This document shows positions 7,292-50,895 of a stretch of 64,000 nucleotides of DNA, in pieces. Source of the stretch: Anaerolineales bacterium. GTDB lineage: Bacteria; Chloroflexota; Anaerolineae; Anaerolineales; E44-bin32. Every line of letters begins with the position of its first letter. Positions within the stretch are counted from its first letter, which is position 1. The DNA lies in contig DAOUEE010000200.1 in assembly GCA_034430695.1 (NCBI GenBank), positions 19,834-83,833 of the forward strand, read 5' to 3'. A model generated the notes under the pieces. That model was not told where the DNA came from, did no database searches, and saw only the letters and a program-made list of their open reading frames with translations. The translations under genes and the position numbers were made by a program.

Positions 7292-8986
7292 ATGAGTTTT
7301 GAAAAAGGTGAAAACGTAGGCGCCTACCGCATCATCGAGCAGCTGGGACAGGGAGGTATGGCGACGGTTTACAAAGCCTACCATCCCGCCCTCGATCGTT
7401 ATGTGGCCATCAAAGCGCTTCATCCGGCGATCATGGAAGACCCCAATTTTCAGGCTCGTTTCGAACGAGAAGCCAAAGTCGTCGCCAAGTTGGAGCACCC
7501 GAACATCGTTCCGATCTACGATTTCTCCGAGCATGCAGGCCAGCCCTACCTGGTGATGAAGTTCATCGAAGGGGAAACACTCAAAGCGCGTCTTGCAAAA
7601 GGTCCGCTCAAGAAGGAAGAAGCGCTGCGCATCGTCCAGGCCGTTGGGGGTGCACTGACGTACGCGCACGAACACGGCTACCTGCATCGGGACGTCAAAC
7701 CTTCCAACATTTTGATCGCTCCGGGAGGCGAAATCTACCTTGCGGATTTCGGACTGGCGCGCATCGCAGAAGCAGGCGCTTCGACGCTCTCGGGGGACAT
7801 GCTCATGGGCACGCCGCAGTACATTTCCCCCGAACAGGCGCAAGGAGTGAAGGATCTCGACGAGGGGACGGACATCTATTCCTTCGGAGTCGTGCTCTAC
7901 GAACTGGTCGTCGGCCGCGTTCCCTTTTCTTCGGACACCCCCTTCTCGATCATTCACGACCACATCTACACGCCGCTCCCCTTGCCGCGCCAGATCAATC
8001 CGACGGTGCCGGAGGCCGTCGAGCTGGTGCTGTTGAAGGCACTGGCGAAAGACCGAGAAGATCGTTATGCCAGCGTCGAGGATATGATCGAGGCCTTCTG
8101 TGCTGCCGTTACGGGCGGCGATATCGGGGTGCTCGAATCGTTGTCGAACCCTCGCACAAAGAAGCAGCTTCCTTCGGAATCGCTTGCGAAAGCCGCAACG
8201 TTGGCCGACATGGCGAATTTGGATGACGCGCCGCAGCCCGAGACCGTGGATGAAAAGCCGGGGCTGAAGGACTCGCTGCGAAAACGCAGCCGGTGGTTCT
8301 GGGTCGTCGCCGGATTGGTGATGACCTGTTGTATCCTGTTTGTTTTTATCGGCAGCATCAAGCAACTTTCTTCCCTGGGAAAGCCAACCGAGACGGAGCC
8401 GCCGGAAGATCGACCCGTGGAGGAAGTTCAACCCGAAGACTTTTCAAACGAAAATGCGGACGAAGTGCTTCATCGGGCGGAAACGTTGCTCGCGGAAGGC
8501 GATGACCGCGGGGCATACGATGCTTTCATTAAAGCTGGCGACTTTTTCATGGAAGCCGGTGATTTCCCGATGGCCATGGAAACCTACTTGCGGGCGCGTG
8601 AGCTCTCGCAAAATCCGATGCGTCCCGAAGTACTCCTGGCAAACAAGCTATTCCAAGCCCTTTTCTTCGGAGCACCTGAGGAACCGATGTGGCCGTTGAT
8701 CGAGGGCCTTTATGATAATTACCCGGATCGAGACGTGATCCAGGTGGCCGCTGCGCGGATGCGTTTGTATGCAGATTCCCCGGAGGCGGCTATGGCTGAG
8801 CTGACTCCCGTGTTAGACCGCAATCCGGACAACGCCGTCGCGAATGTGGTTCTCGTCGAGATCCACATCCACCTTGGCGAGATGGATGTGGCCCGGGATC
8901 TCCTTACCCGGCTTTTGGAGAACAACCGCACGCCGGTATGGCTGCAAGAGCATATGCAATTTTTGAAACGTCAAATCCCTGAATAA
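7292..8986 (+). CDS. Hanks-type Ser/Thr protein kinase with one TM helix and a C-terminal TPR-like helical domain
   Basis: GQGGMATVYKA, VAIK, HRDVKPSNIL and DFGLAR motifs. TM helix WFWVVAGLVMTCCILFVFIGSI. Helical repeat tail. Confidence 0.9.
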   Translation: MSFEKGENVGAYRIIEQLGQGGMATVYKAYHPALDRYVAIKALHPAIMEDPNFQARFEREAKVVAKLEHPNIVPIYDFSEHAGQPYLVMKFIEGETLKARLAKGPLKKEEALRIVQAVGGALTYAHEHGYLHRDVKPSNILIAPGGEIYLADFGLARIAEAGASTLSGDMLMGTPQYISPEQAQGVKDLDEGTDIYSFGVVLYELVVGRVPFSSDTPFSIIHDHIYTPLPLPRQINPTVPEAVELVLLKALAKDREDRYASVEDMIEAFCAAVTGGDIGVLESLSNPRTKKQLPSESLAKAATLADMANLDDAPQPETVDEKPGLKDSLRKRSRWFWVVAGLVMTCCILFVFIGSIKQLSSLGKPTETEPPEDRPVEEVQPEDFSNENADEVLHRAETLLAEGDDRGAYDAFIKAGDFFMEAGDFPMAMETYLRARELSQNPMRPEVLLANKLFQALFFGAPEEPMWPLIEGLYDNYPDRDVIQVAAARMRLYADSPEAAMAELTPVLDRNPDNAVANVVLVEIHIHLGEMDVARDLLTRLLENNRTPVWLQEHMQFLKRQIPE

Positions 8987-42617: not shown

Positions 42618-42942
42618 GTGTGAACTCCTTACCGTCGGGAAGACTTCAACGAAAATCACATTTCCCAACGCACCTGGGGAAAGGTAATGAATTACAAGTC
42701 AGTACGAAAGTTATGGAACGAATTATAATGGGTATCGGCGTTTCAACACATCACATCCATTCTACCACTTTCAAATACCAGCATACTTTTATTCCGTTCA
42801 TCCAAGAAACGTTGAGGAAGGCCGCTATCCGCATGTGGTAAATTTCAGAAGATGTGATAGGTTTAACGCCTGCCGACAGCTCGGGTTGGGGGTGGAAACT
42901 TTCGGGAATGCCCTATAATGGAGGATACACGGTATAACGGCC

Positions 42943-43305
42943 ATGGAATTACCCGTCGTTAATCCGTCTGAAGAAGCTCTCCCGCCCGAAGAAGTTCGTA
43001 TTCGGACGGTGTCATTCGCCGTTCAAGCGGATCGTCGTCGAGTAAGAATCTCGATGGAGTTGACACCATTTCAAAGTCCACCGGATGTAGCTGTGGTAAT
43101 CACGGATGATGATGGTGTTGAGTTGGTCAGCACGAATATTATCGGCGCGACGAACAGCAGATTGGCGTTTACGATGCATCTTCCCGAATTGGAGCCTTCC
43201 GGCCAGTGTCTCTTCCGTGCTGCCGTGGAGTATCAGGAGCAGGGGAAGGTAGACGAAGTAGTGAAGGCGTTTTCACCAGTCAATACTTCGTCGGAAGCAG
43301 ATTGA
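42943..43305 (+). CDS. hypothetical 120-aa protein, predicted beta-rich, co-transcribed with the STAND regulator
   Basis: ORF with no homology I recognise. Preceded by TATAAT 42914-42919. Its stop lies 8 nt before the regulator ATG, and the regulator SD (GAGGGGA) sits inside its 3' end. Confidence 0.55.
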   Translation: MELPVVNPSEEALPPEEVRIRTVSFAVQADRRRVRISMELTPFQSPPDVAVVITDDDGVELVSTNIIGATNSRLAFTMHLPELEPSGQCLFRAAVEYQEQGKVDEVVKAFSPVNTSSEAD

Positions 43306-43313
43306 GGGGACGG

Positions 43314-46300
43314 ATGGCGAAATTCAATTCCGTTCTACGGCACGCAATCACACCACTGAGTTTCGATGTCGAAACCAAGGTGCATCGAGAACACCTGGTC
43401 GATGAAATCCACGCGAACATTCCCCGAAAACTCATCATCGTTGCCGCCCCGGCAGGATATGGGAAAACGACGCTCCTGGCCGATTTTACGAAACACACAG
43501 AATTGCCGGTTTGTTGGGCGCGGCTGTCTGCGGTAGATCAAGACCTGTTCCATTTTGCCATGGTGCTTTCCAGCTCGCTGCAACGACGTTTCCGGCGTCT
43601 GCAGGGGATTTTTGATTTCGATTCGCTTTCCGATTACTCGCCTGAAGCCCTTGCACGCATGTTTGCCGAGGTGATCGATGCCAAAATTAACGAGACTTTC
43701 GTCATCGCTCTGGACGACGTGCACTGGATCAACAAATCCAAGCCGATCTTGAATTTCCTGGACCAGTTCTTGGAGGAACAACCCGAACAGGCCACGCTCA
43801 TCGCTACGGGGCGAGAAGTTCTGGAGGTTTCTCTGGCAAAGTTCATGGCGGAGGGGAACTTGGTCGGCTTCGGTCCGCAAGATCTGGCCTTGTCGAGAGA
43901 AGAAATTATTCAACTTGCACGCGTTCATTCCAACCTGGAAATCGGTGTGGATGCCGCGGAGCGATTGCAGCATGATACTCGTGGCTGGATCACGGGTGTG
44001 ATCCTCTCGGCGGAACTCTCGGGCCGGGGATTGAATGCGCTGAAGATGAGTTCACGGCCGATGGTTTACGAGTACCTCGCTTCGGTCGTACTGAATCGCC
44101 AACCGGATGATCTGCGCCGTTTCGTGTTGGACACCTCCGTGTTTCCGGTTATGACGGTGGAGGGCTGCAATTACTTGCTGCGGCGTGACGATAGTTCCAG
44201 TATGCTCGCCCGCATCGTCGACCGGGGATTGTTCGTCACGGCGACCGATGAAGGCCCCAGAACATACGAATACCACCCTCAATTCCGTGAATTTCTATTG
44301 GAAACTCTCCAGGGTGGAGATGCGCAGCGATACAAGGGCTTGCTGAACCGTGCGGCGAGATATCTGGCCGATCACGATTCGCCCGAGTATGCCGTCGAGC
44401 TTTTCTGCGATGCCGGGGAAGGAAAACGTGCTGTCGAGCTGGCCGAAGGACGGGCCCGTGAGATGTTTGTCAGCGGGCGTTGGCAAACACTCGAGTTGTG
44501 GGCGCGACGACTCGAAGAGATCGAATCTCCCGCGCCACGCGTGTTGCTTTACCTCGCGGCGAAATATACCCAGCAAGGAAGGCTGGAGGAAGCGGAGAAA
44601 AATCTCGATCAAGCGAAAACGATGCTGGATTTGGATTCGCCCAAAAATTTGCGAGCGTACTATGAAATTCTTCGCGGCCACGTGGCGCTTCGTCGCGGAT
44701 CCTATGAGGCTGTGATCGAGGTTATTGCTCGTGCGGAGGAAATTTTAAAACCGTCCGGCAAGCGCCTGCAAAAAGCAGAATGCTACCGACTGCGTGCGCT
44801 CGCATCTTCGTTGAAGGGAGATTTACTGACGGCCGAATCCTACTGTGCGAAGGCCGTTGCTTTATATCAAAAGACGGACGAAAAATTAGATTTGGCTTAT
44901 GGTTTGATCGATCAATCGACAATTCAGGTGGCTTTGGGAAAATCCTCGGAAGCGTACGCTACGACGAAGCAAGCCCATCAAATTCTGCTGCAAGGTGGAG
45001 CTCCCTTGCCGCTGGCGGTTTCATTCATGAATCTCGCACACGATGCGCATCAGCGCGGTGAGTATGAAGAGGCCATGGAGCTTTACAATGAAGGTCTCAA
45101 GTATACACGTCAAGCGGCCAGCCCTCCTCAAGAAGCCCTGATCCTCTTCGGGCAAGCGGATTTATTCAATGATCTTAACCTCGCCTTGCAGGCTGCAGAA
45201 CTGTACGGATTGGGTCTGGATATTGCCATTCGGTTGGATGATCTACAGCAAATACGTTACGGGTGCGTGCAGACGAGCGTCCTACACCGCAGGCGCGGGG
45301 GAGGCAGCCTGGCGCACGATTGGCTTCGGCGGGCGATCAAACTCGAAAAGACCAGTGATCTGACAACCGATATCTTGATTCAATTGGCGGCACTCGAATC
45401 GATGGCTAAACCCCAGCAGTCCATTATGAAGCTTAAATCCATCCTATTGAAGGAACACAATAGCGATGTCGGTATCACCACTTTAGGTCTCTACTTCCAA
45501 TCGCGGGCGGAGTTTGCGATCGGGGCTCGGGATGAAGCGCAAAATACTCTCGAACGTGCTCTCGGTTGGGCCAACACCAACGGAACCGAACAATTGCTCT
45601 CGGCTGAACTATCATTTGATGATTCCTTTCGAGAGTTTGCAAGGAATCGCCTCACTGGTCACCCTTCTCTTTCGATTGTTCTACGCAGAGTGGATACAAT
45701 GCGTGCAGTCGCGCAACATTACCGGGATATTGGCGAAGAAAAGGATCTTCGGGGCGTGCGACTCGTGTTCAAAGCGTTCGGGGAAGCCAATGTTCTCAAG
45801 AATGATTCCCAGATCACGGATCTGAAACCACTTGCACGAGAAGTGTTGTTCTATTTAATCGATCACCAGCACGTCGACCGGGATGTACTCCTGGAGACTT
45901 TCTGGCAACACCATCCTCCGGGCCGGCAGGTAGCGAATTTGCATACCGCTGTCTACAGCCTGCGTCGTGTACTGGGCCGTTCGACAATTCTACACGAGGG
46001 TTCGGTGTACTCGATCAATGTAGAAATCGCCATCGAATACGACGTGGCTCGATTTGAACGGGCTACATCGGTGGCTGAAAGCCTTCCGATTGGGGATCCT
46101 CGCCGCATGTTCGCTCTTACGGAAGCGATCAATTCATACACGGGATCGTTCTTATCCGAATTCGATTCAGATTGGGTGGTCGAACGGCGCCGGGATTTAG
46201 AACTTCAATATCTTGATTTGTTGGCCCAGCACGCCGAAGAGGCGTTGATCCGCGATCAGCCGTTAAGGGCTGTAAATACACTTCGTCAGGCTTTACAAAT

Positions 46301-46472
46301 CGATCCTCTTCGTGATGATACCAACTTCCACTTTTTAGAAGCGCTCGGGCGATTGGGCCGGCGAAGCGAGATCGTGGCTCACTATCAGAAGTATGTGAAC
46401 GGGCTCTCGACAGAATTGGGGTTGGATCCGCCGAAAACAGTCCGTGATCTTTACGCTCGTTTAATAAAGTGA
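43314..46472 (+). CDS. MalT-like STAND NTPase + TPR + C-terminal OmpR-type wHTH + BTAD (SARP-like) transcriptional regulator
   Basis: Walker A AAPAGYGKTTLL and Walker B FVIALDDVHW, with a MalT-like arm (TRGWITGV, YEYHPQFREFL). Long TPR-like middle. C-terminus (from about 45760) LAREVLFYLI...LLETFWQHHPPGRQVANLHTAVYSLRRVLG, then a BTAD helical domain ending LYARLIK. Start taken at ATG 43314. Confidence 0.85.
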   Translation: MAKFNSVLRHAITPLSFDVETKVHREHLVDEIHANIPRKLIIVAAPAGYGKTTLLADFTKHTELPVCWARLSAVDQDLFHFAMVLSSSLQRRFRRLQGIFDFDSLSDYSPEALARMFAEVIDAKINETFVIALDDVHWINKSKPILNFLDQFLEEQPEQATLIATGREVLEVSLAKFMAEGNLVGFGPQDLALSREEIIQLARVHSNLEIGVDAAERLQHDTRGWITGVILSAELSGRGLNALKMSSRPMVYEYLASVVLNRQPDDLRRFVLDTSVFPVMTVEGCNYLLRRDDSSSMLARIVDRGLFVTATDEGPRTYEYHPQFREFLLETLQGGDAQRYKGLLNRAARYLADHDSPEYAVELFCDAGEGKRAVELAEGRAREMFVSGRWQTLELWARRLEEIESPAPRVLLYLAAKYTQQGRLEEAEKNLDQAKTMLDLDSPKNLRAYYEILRGHVALRRGSYEAVIEVIARAEEILKPSGKRLQKAECYRLRALASSLKGDLLTAESYCAKAVALYQKTDEKLDLAYGLIDQSTIQVALGKSSEAYATTKQAHQILLQGGAPLPLAVSFMNLAHDAHQRGEYEEAMELYNEGLKYTRQAASPPQEALILFGQADLFNDLNLALQAAELYGLGLDIAIRLDDLQQIRYGCVQTSVLHRRRGGGSLAHDWLRRAIKLEKTSDLTTDILIQLAALESMAKPQQSIMKLKSILLKEHNSDVGITTLGLYFQSRAEFAIGARDEAQNTLERALGWANTNGTEQLLSAELSFDDSFREFARNRLTGHPSLSIVLRRVDTMRAVAQHYRDIGEEKDLRGVRLVFKAFGEANVLKNDSQITDLKPLAREVLFYLIDHQHVDRDVLLETFWQHHPPGRQVANLHTAVYSLRRVLGRSTILHEGSVYSINVEIAIEYDVARFERATSVAESLPIGDPRRMFALTEAINSYTGSFLSEFDSDWVVERRRDLELQYLDLLAQHAEEALIRDQPLRAVNTLRQALQIDPLRDDTNFHFLEALGRLGRRSEIVAHYQKYVNGLSTELGLDPPKTVRDLYARLIK

Positions 46473-46677
46473 ATCACACACTCTAAAATCGGACTTTCGG
46501 CATAATCTGGAGAACTCACTTCGATTGATGGCCATGCGTTTGGAATCGAACTGCGTTCTCCCCACGATTGCTGTACACTACACCTCATAACCATCTCCAC
46601 GCATCCATTCATCACCGCTCCAATACAACCCTGATACGGCCTGATAAGTGTGGACCATCCAACGTATGCCGATTGTC

Positions 46678-46710
46678 GTTGAGAATCTGTTGAGACCTTT
46701 ATTGTAGAGT
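46678..46710 (+). promoter_or_regulatory. candidate SARP-box promoter: two exact heptamer direct repeats at 11-bp spacing plus a -10-like hexamer
   Basis: GTTGAGA (46678-46684), atct, GTTGAGA (46689-46695), 9 nt, then TAGAGT (46705-46710). It lies 28 nt upstream of the micropeptide SD. Confidence 0.4.
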
Positions 46711-46749
46711 AATTAACAGAGAGAGAACACATTCAATAAGGAGGTTGCC

Positions 46750-46800
46750 ATGCCGAATGTGCGCTGCGTTCGCGGTGGTGGTCTTATTGGCGGGGGCTAG
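46750..46800 (+). CDS. candidate 16-aa Gly-rich micropeptide or leader peptide (MPNVRCVRGGGLIGGG)
   Basis: Perfect AAGGAGG (46738-46744), 5 nt, ATG, then 16 codons ending in TAG. Followed by a palindrome and a terminator. Confidence 0.35.
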   Translation: MPNVRCVRGGGLIGGG

Positions 46801-46843: not shown

Positions 46844-46880
46844 GGCAGCGAGGCGACTTGACTTGCTGCCTTTTTATTTC
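46844..46880 (+). terminator. intrinsic terminator or attenuator after the micropeptide ORF
   Basis: GGCAGCGAG / CTTGCTGCC, a 9-bp stem (one G-U pair) with a 9-nt loop, followed by TTTTTATTTC. Confidence 0.55.
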
Positions 46881-46919: not shown

Positions 46920-47210
46920 ATGAGTATGCAGAGTCTGAATCAACTTGTGGCGCGTTCGATTATCGATCCCGGGATCGTGCAGGCTTTCAGTTCCGGAAAC
47001 AGGTCTGCAATCCTCAGCGAAATGGAGTTTTCGCCCGAGCTTCGGTCGGATCTCAACTGCATTGAAGCGAGTTCGTTTGTGGAATTCGCGATCAAAGCCT
47101 ACCGTGTGGTAAAAGCTTCGGAAGTAAAGCCGCTGCAAATCGAACTTCCCTCTCCGATTGCGGGTTTGGTGCCGGATCAAGATTGTGCTGAGGGTGAACA
47201 AGCTGCATGA
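46920..47210 (+). CDS. 96-aa helical protein with faint LigA / NHLP-leader-like resemblance
   Basis: AGGAGG (46907-46912), 7 nt, then ATG. SLNQLVARSIIDPGIVQAFSSGN...FSPELRSDLNCIEASSFVEFA resembles LigA-subunit/NHLP-clan small proteins. This is from memory, not a search. Confidence 0.55.
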   Translation: MSMQSLNQLVARSIIDPGIVQAFSSGNRSAILSEMEFSPELRSDLNCIEASSFVEFAIKAYRVVKASEVKPLQIELPSPIAGLVPDQDCAEGEQAA

Positions 47211-47707
47211 TCACATGCACGAAGAAGGAGCGGGAGTGGTTCTTGCAGAACATCGCACAGGGACTTGTGGATTATCTCGGTGTGATGGAGCCTCCTGTGC
47301 CGATCGAGAAACTGCTTAGAAATCCCCCGGCGATATACGATGCGGACTTCGGCGTCGTAGAAATGAATTCCGAGCTGTGGGATGCGACGTTCGCGCGGCT
47401 GCCCGATCAGAGTGGTAAAATTTTCGTCCACTCGGATCTCGGACCAGAAGCGCGTCGATATGCATTGGCGCGTGAAACGCTGAGCGCCTTGATCACGAGC
47501 AAGCACGGTCAAAATCTGGGTCTTTTCGAATTGGTCGAATCGCACTTGAGAGAATCTGCGGAATTTTTTGCCCGAATACTTCTAGCCCCTCCGCGCTTAC
47601 TGCGCTGCTTTTGTTCAGGGGATGGAGCGGTAACGAGGATCGTGAAAGAATTTAAGCTCCCGATGCACGCGGCATCGAAACTTTGTGAAGATATGAGCAC
47701 TGCGTAA
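47207..47707 (+). CDS. ImmA/IrrE (M78, COG2856)-like protein lacking the HExxH zinc site
   Basis: ATGA overlap with the upstream gene. IFVHSDLGPEARRYALARETLSAL...ESAEFFARILLAPPRLL parallels the family pattern I.in..l....RRFTLAHELGHal...E.EAN.FAa.LLmP..ll. H-E-x-x-H is replaced by R-E-T-L-S. Confidence 0.6.
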   Translation: MITCTKKEREWFLQNIAQGLVDYLGVMEPPVPIEKLLRNPPAIYDADFGVVEMNSELWDATFARLPDQSGKIFVHSDLGPEARRYALARETLSALITSKHGQNLGLFELVESHLRESAEFFARILLAPPRLLRCFCSGDGAVTRIVKEFKLPMHAASKLCEDMSTA

Positions 47708-47736
47708 TGCAACAGGAGTTGTTTGTTTGACGGATG

Positions 47737-47768
47737 AGCCGGCCTCGGGGCCGGTTCTTTTTCTTTCC
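47737..47768 (+). terminator. intrinsic terminator ending the small-gene cassette
   Basis: AGCCGGCC-tcgg-GGCCGGTT stem followed by TTCTTTTTCTTT. Confidence 0.65.
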
Positions 47769-47887: not shown

Positions 47888-49810
47888 TTGACGGAAAAGC
47901 AGGCATCTCTGACAGACACATCACCCGGGGCACGAAGGACATCTAGGAAGCCCTGGATTTTTCGATCCTTTCTTTTTATCTCGCTGCTCGCAGTTGTTGG
48001 GATCGGATGGATAAGTATTGGGGTTCAGAATCGATTGCGCGACTCGGATCTGGATCCGACATTGATCTCGCTGGCCACTTCGTTGGCATATACCGCCACA
48101 CCAAGTCCATCGCCCACGGTTTCTCCTGCCTTGCCAACCAACACTCCAGCACCCACAAGAATTACCTCGTGGGGAACGATCATTTTTTCGGCAAGAGGGA
48201 ATGGGTACACACACTTGTGGGCCTATGTGCCCGGGGATTCGAACTCGGTCCAACTGACGGGAGGCCCGTGGGACGATCGCGATCCCGCGGTGAGTCCCGA
48301 TGGGTTTTCGGTTGCCTTCACCTCGAGGCGGAATGGATACTGGGATTTATATATCCTCGATCTGCAGTCGGGCGACATCCGGCGGCTTTCCAATACCCCT
48401 GGCTACGAAGGCAATCCGACGTGGTCTCCGGACGGGCACTGGTTGGCGTTCGAGGCCTACTACAATGACAATTTCGACATCTGGATCGTTCCTGTCGATC
48501 TGGGACAAGATCCGATCCAGCTCACGATTCATCCGGGTGCGGATCTTAGTCCGAGTTGGGATCCCCAAGGCCGCAGGATAGCTTTTGTCTCCGATCGAGA
48601 CGACTCCCCCGACATCTTTCTGGCAAATCTCGATGAACCGGATGATCGTTTTCTCAACATCACCAACACCAAATCGACCGTCGAGAGCATGCCGGTTTTC
48701 AGTGATGACGGTTCGTCATTGGCCTACAGCGAATCCTCCTCGGGTATCGATGTCGTCAAGGTGTTCGATTTGAATGACATCAACCACCCGCCATACGAAG
48801 TCGGGCAGGGCCGGCACGCTGCCTGGTCTCCAGATGGCCGTTACATGGTCACTATATTGCGTACGGCGCTGTACCGGCGATTTCAAGTTTTCGCTCTGGA
48901 TCACGTTGAGGCAGCGGATTTGCCGGTTTTACCGTGGATCGATGTCGACGACGTTACCTGGACGGCGGCCGGAATGCCGGGAGAGATTTCCGCTGTCGAT
49001 CGCTTGCCGCCCACCGATGCGCCGCTGTTGAATGATGCGGCTAACGAATCACAGGATGCGAATGAATTGATGGATCTCGTCGATCTACCCGGGGTTCGCG
49101 CCCCGCATCCTTCTTTGTCAGACGCCGTCGACCAGGATTTTCTTGCGCTCAAAAAACACAGTATTTCGATCCTGGGATGGGATTTTTTGGAGAGTCTCGA
49201 TAATGCCTTTGTTGGATTGAACGATCCGTTGCCGCCCGGATTTGCCTACAACGATTGGCTTTACACCGGCCGGGCGTTCGCTTTCAACAGCGCGGCGATA
49301 CAGGCTGGATGGGTGGAATTCGTACGCGAGGATTTTGGCGGTCAAACCTACTGGCGGGTGTACGTCCTCGCGGCTCTCCAGGACGGTACTTTGGGCGAAC
49401 CCTTGCGTGAACTGCCGTGGGATTTCGACACACGGATTAACGGCGATCCGAAGACGTACGACCAGGGCGGATCCCTGCGAGAGTCCATTCCCTCGGGCTA
49501 CTACATCGATTTTACGCAGCTGGCCTCCGATTATGGTTTTGAACGACTTCCTGCGCTTTCCAACTGGCGGACGTTTTACCACGGAACGCGTCTCAACGAA
49601 TTCGTCAAACGAGAAGGCCTGAGTTGGACGGAAGCGATGCTGGAATTGTATCCCGCCTCAGCTCTGGTGACTCCTACACCGTTCCAAACTCCGACGAACA
49701 CGCCAACCCGAACGCCGAGGCCGACGGCGACTTCTTGGTGGTGGAAATGGCGGACTCCCTCGGCGACGCCAACGCAGCAGCCGATTTTCACCCCAACTGT
49801 GACACCATGA
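47888..49810 (+). CDS. membrane-anchored TolB-like beta-propeller (PD40 repeats) protein with an uncharacterised C-terminal domain and a Pro/Thr-rich tail
   Basis: N-terminal TM helix. Repeated D..P.(W/V)SPDG...(A/V)F.S pattern (PAVSPDGFSVAFTS, PTWSPDGHWLAFEA, PSWDPQGRRIAFVS, AAWSPDGRYMV). TTG start is uncertain. Confidence 0.8.
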   Translation: MTEKQASLTDTSPGARRTSRKPWIFRSFLFISLLAVVGIGWISIGVQNRLRDSDLDPTLISLATSLAYTATPSPSPTVSPALPTNTPAPTRITSWGTIIFSARGNGYTHLWAYVPGDSNSVQLTGGPWDDRDPAVSPDGFSVAFTSRRNGYWDLYILDLQSGDIRRLSNTPGYEGNPTWSPDGHWLAFEAYYNDNFDIWIVPVDLGQDPIQLTIHPGADLSPSWDPQGRRIAFVSDRDDSPDIFLANLDEPDDRFLNITNTKSTVESMPVFSDDGSSLAYSESSSGIDVVKVFDLNDINHPPYEVGQGRHAAWSPDGRYMVTILRTALYRRFQVFALDHVEAADLPVLPWIDVDDVTWTAAGMPGEISAVDRLPPTDAPLLNDAANESQDANELMDLVDLPGVRAPHPSLSDAVDQDFLALKKHSISILGWDFLESLDNAFVGLNDPLPPGFAYNDWLYTGRAFAFNSAAIQAGWVEFVREDFGGQTYWRVYVLAALQDGTLGEPLRELPWDFDTRINGDPKTYDQGGSLRESIPSGYYIDFTQLASDYGFERLPALSNWRTFYHGTRLNEFVKREGLSWTEAMLELYPASALVTPTPFQTPTNTPTRTPRPTATSWWWKWRTPSATPTQQPIFTPTVTP

Positions 49811-50895
49811 AACGCTCCGGTTTCCTCCTGCTCGCGATCGCGTTGACGTCACTCATGCTCTTCGCCTGTGGAGAGGGGAAAAGCGGTCGTATGCCCCAAC
49901 CAACCGTGACAGATGGTGTCCAATTAGCGCCGTCTGCAACGACGACTCTATCGGCCGGTAAGGATGTGTCGAATCCCATGCTGGGCGACCCGGCCAAAAC
50001 TCCGCTGCCCGTCGCATTTCCTACCGTCGAGCCGAGTGAAGAACTGGATTGGAGACCACCACCGTACCCCGCGCCTTGGGCTCTGCGTCCAGAAGACCAT
50101 TACTACTTCTGGCGACCCATTCCTTCGGGGCAGGTAAATTGGCCCCATCCCTTCTATCGTTATGGAAGCTCATATTTTGGTGAGTCGGACATCCATACCG
50201 GTGTGGATTTAGGCGCCGATCGCGGGGCGCCCGTGCTGGCCGCCGGTCCGGGTGAGGTGGTGTGGGCTGGCTACGGATTGTATCGGGGCATCGAAGATCC
50301 CACCGATCCGTATGGTCTCGCAGTGGCCATTCGACACGATTTTGGCTATCAGGGGCAGGCACTTTATACGATTTATGCTCATATGCAAGAGGTCTTCGTT
50401 TGGGACGGCCAGCACGTGGAGGCCGGCGAGCAGCTTGGTACGGTGGGAACCACGGGTCACTCCGATGGCCCTCACCTGCACTTCGAAGTGCGGTTGGGGG
50501 AAAATCGCTTCTTCAGTACGAGGAATCCAGAATTGTGGATGGTGCCGCCGGAGGGGTGGGCCGTGTTGGCTGGGCGAATTACGGACACGTACGGCAATCT
50601 TCTGCCCGAATTTCCGTTGAAAATCCGATCGCTGGAGACCGGGAAGAAATGGGAAGTCTGGACTTACGTTCTCACGACGATTCACCCCGATGATTACTAC
50701 AACGAGAACTTCGTGATCAGTGATTTGCCGGCGGGGCCGTACGAGATCACGATCGATTTCGTGGGTTTTCAATACGTCGCATATTTGACCCTCTACGCGG
50801 GAGAAACCAATTTCATCCTCTTTCGCGGCCGCAACGGTTTTGTCGTTCATCCTACGCCGACGCCCGTCGATCTGTCCAGTCCTCCCGATCTATGA
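49807..50895 (+). CDS. M23 family metalloendopeptidase lipoprotein
   Basis: Lipobox LMLFAC. HTGVDLGA...GHSDGPHLHFEV LytM-type motifs. ATGA overlap with the upstream gene. The ORF-track start at 49624 is rejected. Confidence 0.88.
   Translation: MKRSGFLLLAIALTSLMLFACGEGKSGRMPQPTVTDGVQLAPSATTTLSAGKDVSNPMLGDPAKTPLPVAFPTVEPSEELDWRPPPYPAPWALRPEDHYYFWRPIPSGQVNWPHPFYRYGSSYFGESDIHTGVDLGADRGAPVLAAGPGEVVWAGYGLYRGIEDPTDPYGLAVAIRHDFGYQGQALYTIYAHMQEVFVWDGQHVEAGEQLGTVGTTGHSDGPHLHFEVRLGENRFFSTRNPELWMVPPEGWAVLAGRITDTYGNLLPEFPLKIRSLETGKKWEVWTYVLTTIHPDDYYNENFVISDLPAGPYEITIDFVGFQYVAYLTLYAGETNFILFRGRNGFVVHPTPTPVDLSSPPDL

Follow-up and report, generated by a model that had tools for sequence, protein, structure and literature searches.

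A MalT-type STAND regulator with a C-terminal SARP module in Chloroflexota and a predicted binding site next to its gene

Streptomyces antibiotic regulatory proteins (SARPs) have been exploited for switching on antibiotic gene clusters and are treated as an actinomycete speciality with the DNA-binding end at the N-terminus. They are defined by an N-terminal winged helix-turn-helix (wHTH) domain, with the bacterial transcriptional activation domain (BTAD) directly behind it, and are classed as small, medium or large, the large ones being either SARP-NB-ARC-TPR or SARP-LAL proteins. They are described as exclusively or predominantly actinomycete proteins, and one account has them occur exclusively in actinomycetes (PMC7040171). 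In another clade of STAND proteins, MalT and the LAL regulators, the topology is NOD, helical-repeat sensor and C-terminal DNA-binding output, the last being a LuxR/GerE HTH of ~60 aa in MalT. Here we analysed a window of 64,000 nucleotides (the whole stretch of DNA studied) from an Anaerolineales bacterium of the Chloroflexota, contig DAOUEE010000200.1. The gene at 43314-46472 (+ strand), whose product has 1052 aa plus stop, encodes a regulator in which a SARP module follows a MalT-like body, as had been proposed from the sequence in the original prediction.

SARP binding sites are heptameric direct repeats with 4-bp spacers, which lie 8 bp upstream of the -10 sequence, in overlap with the -35 (PMC7040171). 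The afsS promoter, with a 20-bp spacer, is bound by a dimer of AfsR (PMC11301090). The SARP-LAL proteins (PimR type, the second subgroup of large SARPs) are the only described combination of SARP and LAL/LuxR features in one chain (PMC5930380). In a literature search covering few subscription journals we found no C-terminal SARP or BTAD, no MalT-SARP fusion and no SARPs in Chloroflexota. No characterised member of a STAND-SARP family was found either; the original prediction had depended on this order not belonging to an already characterised family.

Domain make-up of the regulator

Profile searches, PDB searches and a structural model confirmed that the regulator is a MalT-clade STAND NTPase with a TPR/SUPR sensor and a complete C-terminal SARP module. 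The NOD, consisting of a P-loop NTPase, a helical arm and a winged-helix domain, spans residues 24-390 (43383-44483, +) and contains Walker A GYGKTT (43455-43472, +), Walker B VIALDDVH (43701-43724, +) and the YHPQF His motif (44265-44297, +). The NCBIfam MalT model aligned its positions 13-561 with residues 19-558 (E 3.8e-59), and Pfam placed AAA_22/AAA_16 at residues 27-168, whereas NB-ARC was insignificant (E 0.25). In the PDB sequence search MalT (8bob) matched residues 22-388 with an E value of 1e-20, and the alignment showed GYGKTT, DDxH, GW.T and YHPxF. The motifs from which the MalT-like N-terminus and the OmpR-type wHTH had been proposed were all located at the expected places: Walker A AAPAGYGKTTLL at residues 44-55, DDVHW at 134-138 at the end of Walker B, TRGWITGV at 222-229, YEYHPQFREFL at 318-328, which carries the winged-helix His of the MalT 'YHPLF', and LLETFWQHHPPGRQVANLHTAVYSLRRVLG at 859-888, which forms helices 2-3 of the wHTH.

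The all-helical TPR/SUPR sensor follows at residues 391-804 (44484-45725, +). Pfam detected TPR families including TPR_12 in this middle part, and TPR_MalT remained below its cut-off here (E 1.4e-7) and passed it in three relatives (L067, L068 and L075). An AlphaFold2 model of the regulator built on a 31-sequence alignment had a mean predicted local distance difference test score (pLDDT) of 81, and its sensor was composed of about 21 helices, mostly above 90. When the model was compared with the PDB by Foldseek, the best match to the NOD and TPR body was the STAND-TPR protein 6mfv (E 3.7e-12, 769 aligned columns), which is like this body and has no SARP output in the aligned part of the chain. 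MalT 8bob (E 2.7e-10) and MalT domain III 1hz4 (TM 0.76) were matched as well.

A flexible linker at residues 805-816 (45726-45761, +), with pLDDT <50 and without secondary structure, connects the sensor to the SARP module. The last roughly 240 aa had been read as an OmpR-type wHTH plus a BTAD, which is accurate, the module covering residues 817-1052. Its OmpR/PhoB-type wHTH occupies residues 817-905 (45762-46028, +), with the recognition helix at 869-887 (45918-45974, +) and the wing at 892-901, and is modelled as a beta-sheet, three helices and a beta-hairpin. The BTAD occupies residues 906-1052 (46029-46469, +) and is modelled as seven helices, with pLDDT mostly 83-92 from residue 961 on and lower before. 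The NCBIfam AfsR model aligned its positions 23-266 with residues 811-1051 (E 3.7e-17), and Pfam BTAD was significant at residues 910-1050 (E 8.9e-20) over model positions 2-145 of 146. The SARP part of AfsR (8jke/8k60/8hvr) matched residues 819-1051 in the PDB sequence search (E ~1e-10), EmbR 2fez matched residues 817-1051 (E 1e-4), and Foldseek aligned the AfsR SARP (8k60_J/8hvr_I) over 242-250 columns at 25% identity (E 2e-5). AfsR paired with the regulator through this module and a faint TPR stretch (4 bits), not through its NTPase. No LuxR/GerE HTH was found in the regulator with Pfam models at E<=1, which agrees with the proposed contrast to MalT/LuxR-type regulators.

The regulator is best described as a MalT/LAL-type protein in which the LuxR HTH of ~60 aa was exchanged for a SARP module of ~235 aa. 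Because its NTPase is of the MalT clade and not NB-ARC, and because the order NOD-sensor-DNA-binding domain is that of MalT, we regard it as an output-domain swap on a MalT chassis. Thus, the 'inverted order' of the original prediction stands in that the SARP module is at the end opposite to AfsR, and the protein is not a rearranged AfsR. In the same way, the proposed different geometry of coupling is a novelty as regards SARP modules, the one here being joined to the sensor end by its own N-terminus, but no novelty as regards STAND regulators. The MalT/LAL hallmarks, that is, a NOD with Walker A/B and YHPxF and a SUPR/TPR_MalT sensor, are present, with the exception of the C-terminal LuxR/GerE HTH. 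The defining SARP feature, a wHTH followed directly by a BTAD, is present as well, whereas the N-terminal position and the actinomycete host are not.

Compared with AfsR of Streptomyces coelicolor, the regulator has a homologous SARP module and likewise combines it with a STAND NTPase and TPRs, but the order is NOD-TPR-SARP rather than SARP-NOD-TPR, the NTPase falls outside the NB-ARC clade, and the host belongs to Chloroflexota and not to Actinomycetota. The SARP-LAL proteins have an N-terminal SARP, a LuxR domain at the end and are described without TPRs, whereas the regulator has its SARP in the LuxR position and a long TPR domain. The same wHTH+BTAD unit occurs in the small SARPs (ActII-ORF4, DnrI, RedD and PapR2) and in EmbR. 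However, those are stand-alone proteins of 250-400 aa, or have the module at the N-terminus followed by an FHA domain, and they are actinobacterial and usually encoded in biosynthetic gene clusters, whereas the regulator lies in a housekeeping region.

The gene lies in one long, uninterrupted frame on the + strand (43206-46472), and the open reading frame (ORF) list, the translation and the upstream DNA indicate that the ATG at 43314 is the real start. This ATG is preceded by the Shine-Dalgarno (SD) sequence GAGGGG, and the N-termini of 30 homologues coincide with it in the 31-sequence alignment. A longer start at GTG 43206 was rejected, since the homologues begin at ATG 43314 and the upstream gene orf120 fills that stretch.

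Relatives of the regulator

Proteins of this architecture are not rare. Among 5.8 billion proteins searched, 1,118 clusters of homologues were found at E<=1e-5, derived from NCBI, JGI, ENA and Logan assemblies, and the best 120 of these clusters were nearly all full-length (~1050 aa) with 50-100% identity to the regulator. A scan with one genome per species found at least 538 genomic loci that encode NOD-TPR-SARP. Annotation pipelines have already labelled the family automatically, JGI as 'ATP/maltotriose-dependent transcriptional regulator MalT/DNA-binding SARP family transcriptional activator' and NCBI as 'BTAD domain-containing putative transcriptional regulator [Chloroflexota bacterium]'; it was not discussed in the literature found and is uncharacterised. 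Pfam detected a C-terminal BTAD in Longilinea arvoryzae KOME-1, Thermanaerothrix solaris 4228-RoL, an Anaerolinea thermophila metagenome-assembled genome (MAG) and a Thermoflexia MAG; the first two are isolate genomes with the same architecture. Among the listed loci there were also paralogue groups at 24-29% identity, which still span regulator residues ~39-1052.

The SARP module alone (residues 800-1052) retrieved 24,818 representatives at E<=1e-3 and 2,375 at E<=1e-10 (HMMER), and the best 150 were parsed for domain order with family hidden Markov models. Seventy-two of these had at least 900 aa, and all (72/72) had the module at the C-terminus or close to it; 71/72 were NOD-TPR-SARP, down to 27-30% identity. 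The shorter entries were mostly fragments with the module at their end. Since clusters, loci and domain order hold across relatives down to this identity, the NOD-TPR-SARP fusion is old and diversified, neither a one-off nor an artefact. One representative, P0241 (743 aa), has two SARP modules in tandem (residues 27-258 and 282-513) without a NOD and might represent a form of the same clade in which the 'dimer' is covalently linked.

Wherever a listed homologue had an organism name, it was Chloroflexota. Of the best 80 of the at least 538 loci, 79 were titled Chloroflexota, mainly Anaerolineae and also Thermoflexia, and the organism names in the distant SARP-module clusters were again Chloroflexota. 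The STAND-SARP family is therefore apparently confined to this phylum among the best 80-150 matches listed, nearly all of the named or titled ones being Chloroflexota. The exception among the 80 loci (L023, JAIWHF010000048.1) is titled as a 'Methanosarcinales archaeon' MAG. It shows the DUF1385-M20-orf120-regulator synteny of the Anaerolineales loci at 51% identity and is probably a mis-binned bacterial contig.

The heptamer box and micro-ORF downstream of the regulator gene

The spacer between the regulator gene and the downstream gene orf115 is 447 nt long in the window and holds a predicted binding site, GTTGAGA-ATCT-GTTGAGA, two tandem heptamers with an 11-nt period at 46678-46695 (+), 206 nt past the regulator stop. 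A -10-like TAGAGT (TAnnnT; 46705-46710, +) follows 9 nt past the proximal heptamer (8 nt if the repeat is read as TTGAGAA), and the distal TTGAGA is similar to a -35 element, yet 20 nt separate it from the -10. Box and -10 together seem to form the canonical SARP promoter layout, with heptamers and 4-bp spacer of the form recognised by the small SARPs. They resemble AfsR at afsS in that both repeats lie on the same face of the DNA, 8 bp separate the proximal repeat from the -10, and a -35-like element is found at 20 bp; the regulator is predicted to bind there. By this prediction its target would be a small gene directly 3' of its own, here a micro-ORF, as afsS is for AfsR; afsS encodes 63 aa and the micro-ORF 9-23 aa. 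Two other repeats were seen between the regulator stop and the box: an 18-nt inverted repeat, GGAGAACTCACTTCGATT / AATCGAACTGCGTTCTCC (46509-46561, +; 89% complementary, 17-nt loop, without a T-run), ~40 nt past the stop, and a direct repeat of CCTGATA with 10-nt spacing at 46630-46646.

In the 64-kb window the box was the sole match at up to 2 mismatches. Exact copies were present in 5 other loci, 70-210 nt past the regulator stop and on the same strand, while ~0.007 would be expected in ~0.9 Mb. With <=2 mismatches it was found in 14/19 orthologous spacers and with <=3 mismatches in 16/19, and TAnnnT was at the exact same offset in 16/16 aligned orthologous loci. A blind scan for any such heptamer pair gave a TGAGA-core box in 14/19 orthologous vs 0/42 paralogous loci. 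Box, phase and offset are fixed while the surrounding intergenic sequence and its length (282-853 nt) diverge. In addition, metagenomes were scanned with a composite pattern of box, -10 and SD that included the micro-ORF leader sequence. The scan returned 19 contigs, all with the same synteny, one of which is the window's own sequence (L085), and in 15/15 contigs with at least ~440 nt of upstream sequence the 3' end of the regulator gene was directly upstream of the box.

The leader downstream of the box contains, from 5' to 3', the -10, a conserved GAGnGG block, a strong SD (AAGGAGGTTGCC; AAGGAGG at 46738-46744) and a micro-ORF, MPNVRCVRGGGLIGGG, of 16 codons plus stop at 46750-46800 (+). A short ORF of 9-23 codons is at the same place in 13 orthologous loci, about half of which have the conserved SD (G)GAGGTTGCC before it; the products (MVSTRCPRDGALID, MSGVRCVISGGGGSGGGH, MARCPMIGGGGT, MHRCPKTGGGSS and others) share the core R-C-P-x-x-G-G-G. 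Between loci L001 and L036 all nucleotide differences in the micro-ORF (6/6 in 45 nt) are synonymous, and in the pair L035/L073 the Cys and Gly codons also differ synonymously. Because of these synonymous differences we consider the micro-ORF a coding gene under purifying selection and not an RNA motif; the leader had no credible Rfam match (best E 6.8), and its fold z-score was just -1.8. In L002 (~8417-8485) the core motif is duplicated internally (LALRCPKDGGGSC-RAPKDGGGSC). Between the micro-ORF and orf115 a hairpin, GGCAGCGAG...CTTGCTGCC followed by a T-run (46844-46880, +), is part of the minimum free energy fold and was kept in 17/17 aligned leaders. It may serve as an intrinsic terminator or as an attenuator. 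Its loop and upper stem vary, while the arms (GGCAGCGAG / CTyGCTGCC) are conserved in sequence, which is unusual for a plain terminator.

On balance, we think it probable that the regulator is a cytoplasmic nucleotide-switched activator, with a MalT chassis and a SARP output, which acts on the adjacent GTTGAGA box and micro-ORF. Up to oligomerisation its mode of action is most likely that of MalT, a protein whose Walker A/B and YHPxF His it keeps and whose residues 13-561 and domain III fold it shares. G48, G50, K51, T53, D134, D135, G187, P188 and H321 were invariant in the 31-sequence alignment, and it is from these conserved switch residues that multimerisation dependent on inducer and ATP is predicted. 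The resting regulator would be ADP-bound, monomeric and inactive, as in MalT. A ligand at the TPR sensor would then permit exchange of ADP for ATP and NOD-driven self-association, bringing at least two C-terminal SARP modules side by side on their flexible linkers of ~12 residues. These could bind head-to-tail to GTTGAGA-N4-GTTGAGA, a site defined by sequence and conservation that differs from the MalT boxes in replacing the -35. Since the box would stand in for a functional -35, RNA polymerase would presumably be recruited through the BTAD, as by AfsR at the afsS promoter. The transcript would carry the micro-ORF, and read-through of the hairpin would probably extend it to orf115 and orf166, the two genes that follow.

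Several observations weigh against this proposal. No shared box was found beside the paralogues of 24-29% identity (42 loci), where only scattered AT-rich chance matches occurred, and because they have no recognisable box near their genes a target next door is no rule of the family. The metagenome pattern tests linkage and not binding, as it contained the micro-ORF leader, and adjacency alone is weak evidence because synteny among the orthologous loci is broad and extends to the housekeeping neighbours. Just two repeats are conserved, though more DNA-binding domains would be on offer in a STAND oligomer, and tandem repeats of the 7+4 form are also bound by ordinary OmpR/PhoB response regulators. 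On the protein side, the Pfam match to Trans_reg_C (residues 836-889, E 3e-3) was sub-threshold, with 18 bits vs a cut-off of 26.2, and the model confidence in the wHTH was just 50-86 (pLDDT). Finally, orf115 and orf166 may sit outside the regulon because a terminator stands after the micro-ORF.

The alternative that survives best accepts the STAND-SARP protein as real and assigns the box to an OmpR/PhoB-type response regulator, or to duplicated -35-like sigma elements, with the STAND-SARP targets elsewhere; we regard it as rather unlikely, though to be taken seriously. The Pho-box form, in which two 7-bp repeats with a 4-bp spacer replace the -35, is established for PhoB-type regulators, and TTGAGA agrees with the -35 consensus TTGACA at 5/6 positions. 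Adjacency in a region that is syntenic as a whole could be inherited and not functional, and the missing box beside the paralogues would fit too. However, neither TTGAGA is at a working -35 distance from the -10, the proximal one being 9 nt and the distal one 20 nt away. A constant arrangement amid diverging sequence, its single occurrence in 64 kb and its position directly after the regulator gene throughout the metagenome contigs are also at odds with another owner, and the layout copies that of AfsR, whose target, afsS, immediately follows its gene on the 3' side.

Far less credible is a C-terminal region that has ceased to bind DNA, in which the BTAD and a degenerate wHTH would be the interaction or effector end of a STAND/NLR-type sensor for defence or scaffolding. 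It could draw on the sub-threshold Trans_reg_C match, on the TPR-like nature of the BTAD itself, whose region overlaps TPR models in relatives, and on a Foldseek match to Avs3, which was via the shared NOD only. Against it, the recognition helix and wing are the best-conserved part of the C-terminus in the 31 sequences, with R871, N875, L876, Y881, R884, R885, G888 and Y899 invariant. When the DNA contacts in the cryo-EM structure of AfsR (PMC11301090) were mapped onto the regulator via a HMMER alignment, the backbone and wing contacts P47, R50, T88, R94, K95 and Y109 corresponded to P839, R842, T878, R884, R885 and Y899, of which all but R842, the consensus residue, are invariant or nearly so in the family. 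The base-reading Q81/R87/R92 of AfsR are R871/H877/S882 here, and different residues at these positions are in line with the different DNA site expected; this pattern is to be expected of a wHTH that functions with another specificity. The weak Pfam match to the wHTH stands because three other independent lines of evidence back this domain. Furthermore, neither the regulator nor its neighbours had a PADLOC defence match, and the context is housekeeping and not a defence island. As for an assembly or gene-calling artefact that fused a MalT-like gene to a small SARP gene, one uninterrupted frame and hundreds of independent homologues of ~1050 aa, isolate genomes included, make it next to impossible. 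Nothing was found in favour of such an artefact; the idea came up because the window appears to derive from an uncultured organism, its exact sequence lying on metagenome contig L085.

Neighbouring genes and a possible circuit

The gene orf120 (42943-43305, +; 120 aa, beta-rich) ends 8 nt before the regulator ATG. By tblastn it was found in 29 loci, in 26/29 of them directly upstream of the regulator; it is probably co-transcribed and translationally coupled with the regulator and may act together with the STAND protein or modulate it. A consensus -10, TATAAT (42914-42919, +), is upstream of orf120 and was kept ~25-35 nt before its start in most of 30 orthologous upstream regions. The heptamer box was not found in these 30 regions, the best match having 4-7 mismatches, and on these grounds we rejected the idea that the regulator controls its own operon through such a box in front of orf120. 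The TATAAT is a probable constitutive promoter of the orf120-regulator operon, and because it is without the box the regulator is probably made constitutively and controlled post-translationally.

Downstream of the hairpin, orf115 (46920-47210, +; ATG 46920, probably 96 aa, helical) was found in 19 loci with a nearly invariant N-terminus, MSMQALNQLVARSI, and its stop overlaps the start of orf166 (ATGA). The product of orf166 (47207-47707, +) is ImmA/IrrE (Peptidase_M78)-like: its orthologues passed the Pfam cut-off for PF06114 with E values of 2.6e-8 to 1.3e-5. The window copies of orf166, orf115 and orf120 had no Pfam, NCBIfam or PADLOC match, and the orf166 profile gave noise only against PDB sequences. 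The family comprises 62 clusters, Chloroflexota where the organism is named, and has a conserved motif, ALARExLSA, in which ARExLS replaces the zinc site HExxH in 15/15 members inspected. Because the site is changed throughout, orf166 probably encodes a pseudo-peptidase. A strong intrinsic terminator (47736-47767, +), a 9-bp stem with 7 GC pairs followed by TTTTTCTTTC, closes the unit of micro-ORF, orf115 and orf166. A TolB-like PD40 propeller and an M23 peptidase (47888-50895, +) lie 3' of it, syntenic in the orthologous loci, and the strong terminator in front of them makes it probable that they are transcribed separately.

The surroundings are housekeeping chromosome, with genes for DUF1385, an M20 peptidase, the TolB-like propeller, the M23 peptidase, ProRS, an AlaX-like protein and IleRS. 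In orthologous loci, whose regulators have 40-63% identity, the order M20(-), orf120(+), regulator(+), orf115(+), orf166(+), propeller(+), M23(+) is conserved. An anti-phage STAND reading (Avs/bacterial NLR-related) was considered and rejected, given these neighbours, the transcription output module and the lack of a PADLOC match.

As a more speculative idea, and one we hold to be improbable, the regulator, the SARP-box promoter and the micro-ORF might form a self-contained signalling circuit. In one version the micro-ORF product of 9-23 aa, or a processed form of it, would be the ligand of the regulator's own TPR sensor and feed back positively, by analogy with RRNPP/Rgg-SHP systems but on a STAND ATPase, with orf120, orf115 and the M78-like pseudo-peptidase as accessory parts. 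In the weaker version, STAND-SARP and a tiny downstream effector would be a pair of the AfsR/AfsS type. If the two pairs are homologous in logic, the activation by a SARP of the mini-protein next door would be an ancient module common to Actinomycetota and Chloroflexota.

That STAND regulators swap domains is in itself no surprise, and if the site prediction fails, a correctly annotated but uncharacterised domain architecture remains. What is new is a predicted and testable triplet of regulator, site and target, including a micro-peptide gene, in a phylum in which almost no transcription factor has been studied. The same wHTH+BTAD output is attached here to the opposite end of another STAND engine, that of the MalT clade, in a second phylum, and in Chloroflexota this output has diversified into hundreds of lineages, cultured Anaerolineae included. 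The family thus offers a natural experiment in the swapping of output modules among NLR-like switches, and asks whether C-terminal tethering to an oligomerising NOD can assemble a SARP dimer on DNA.

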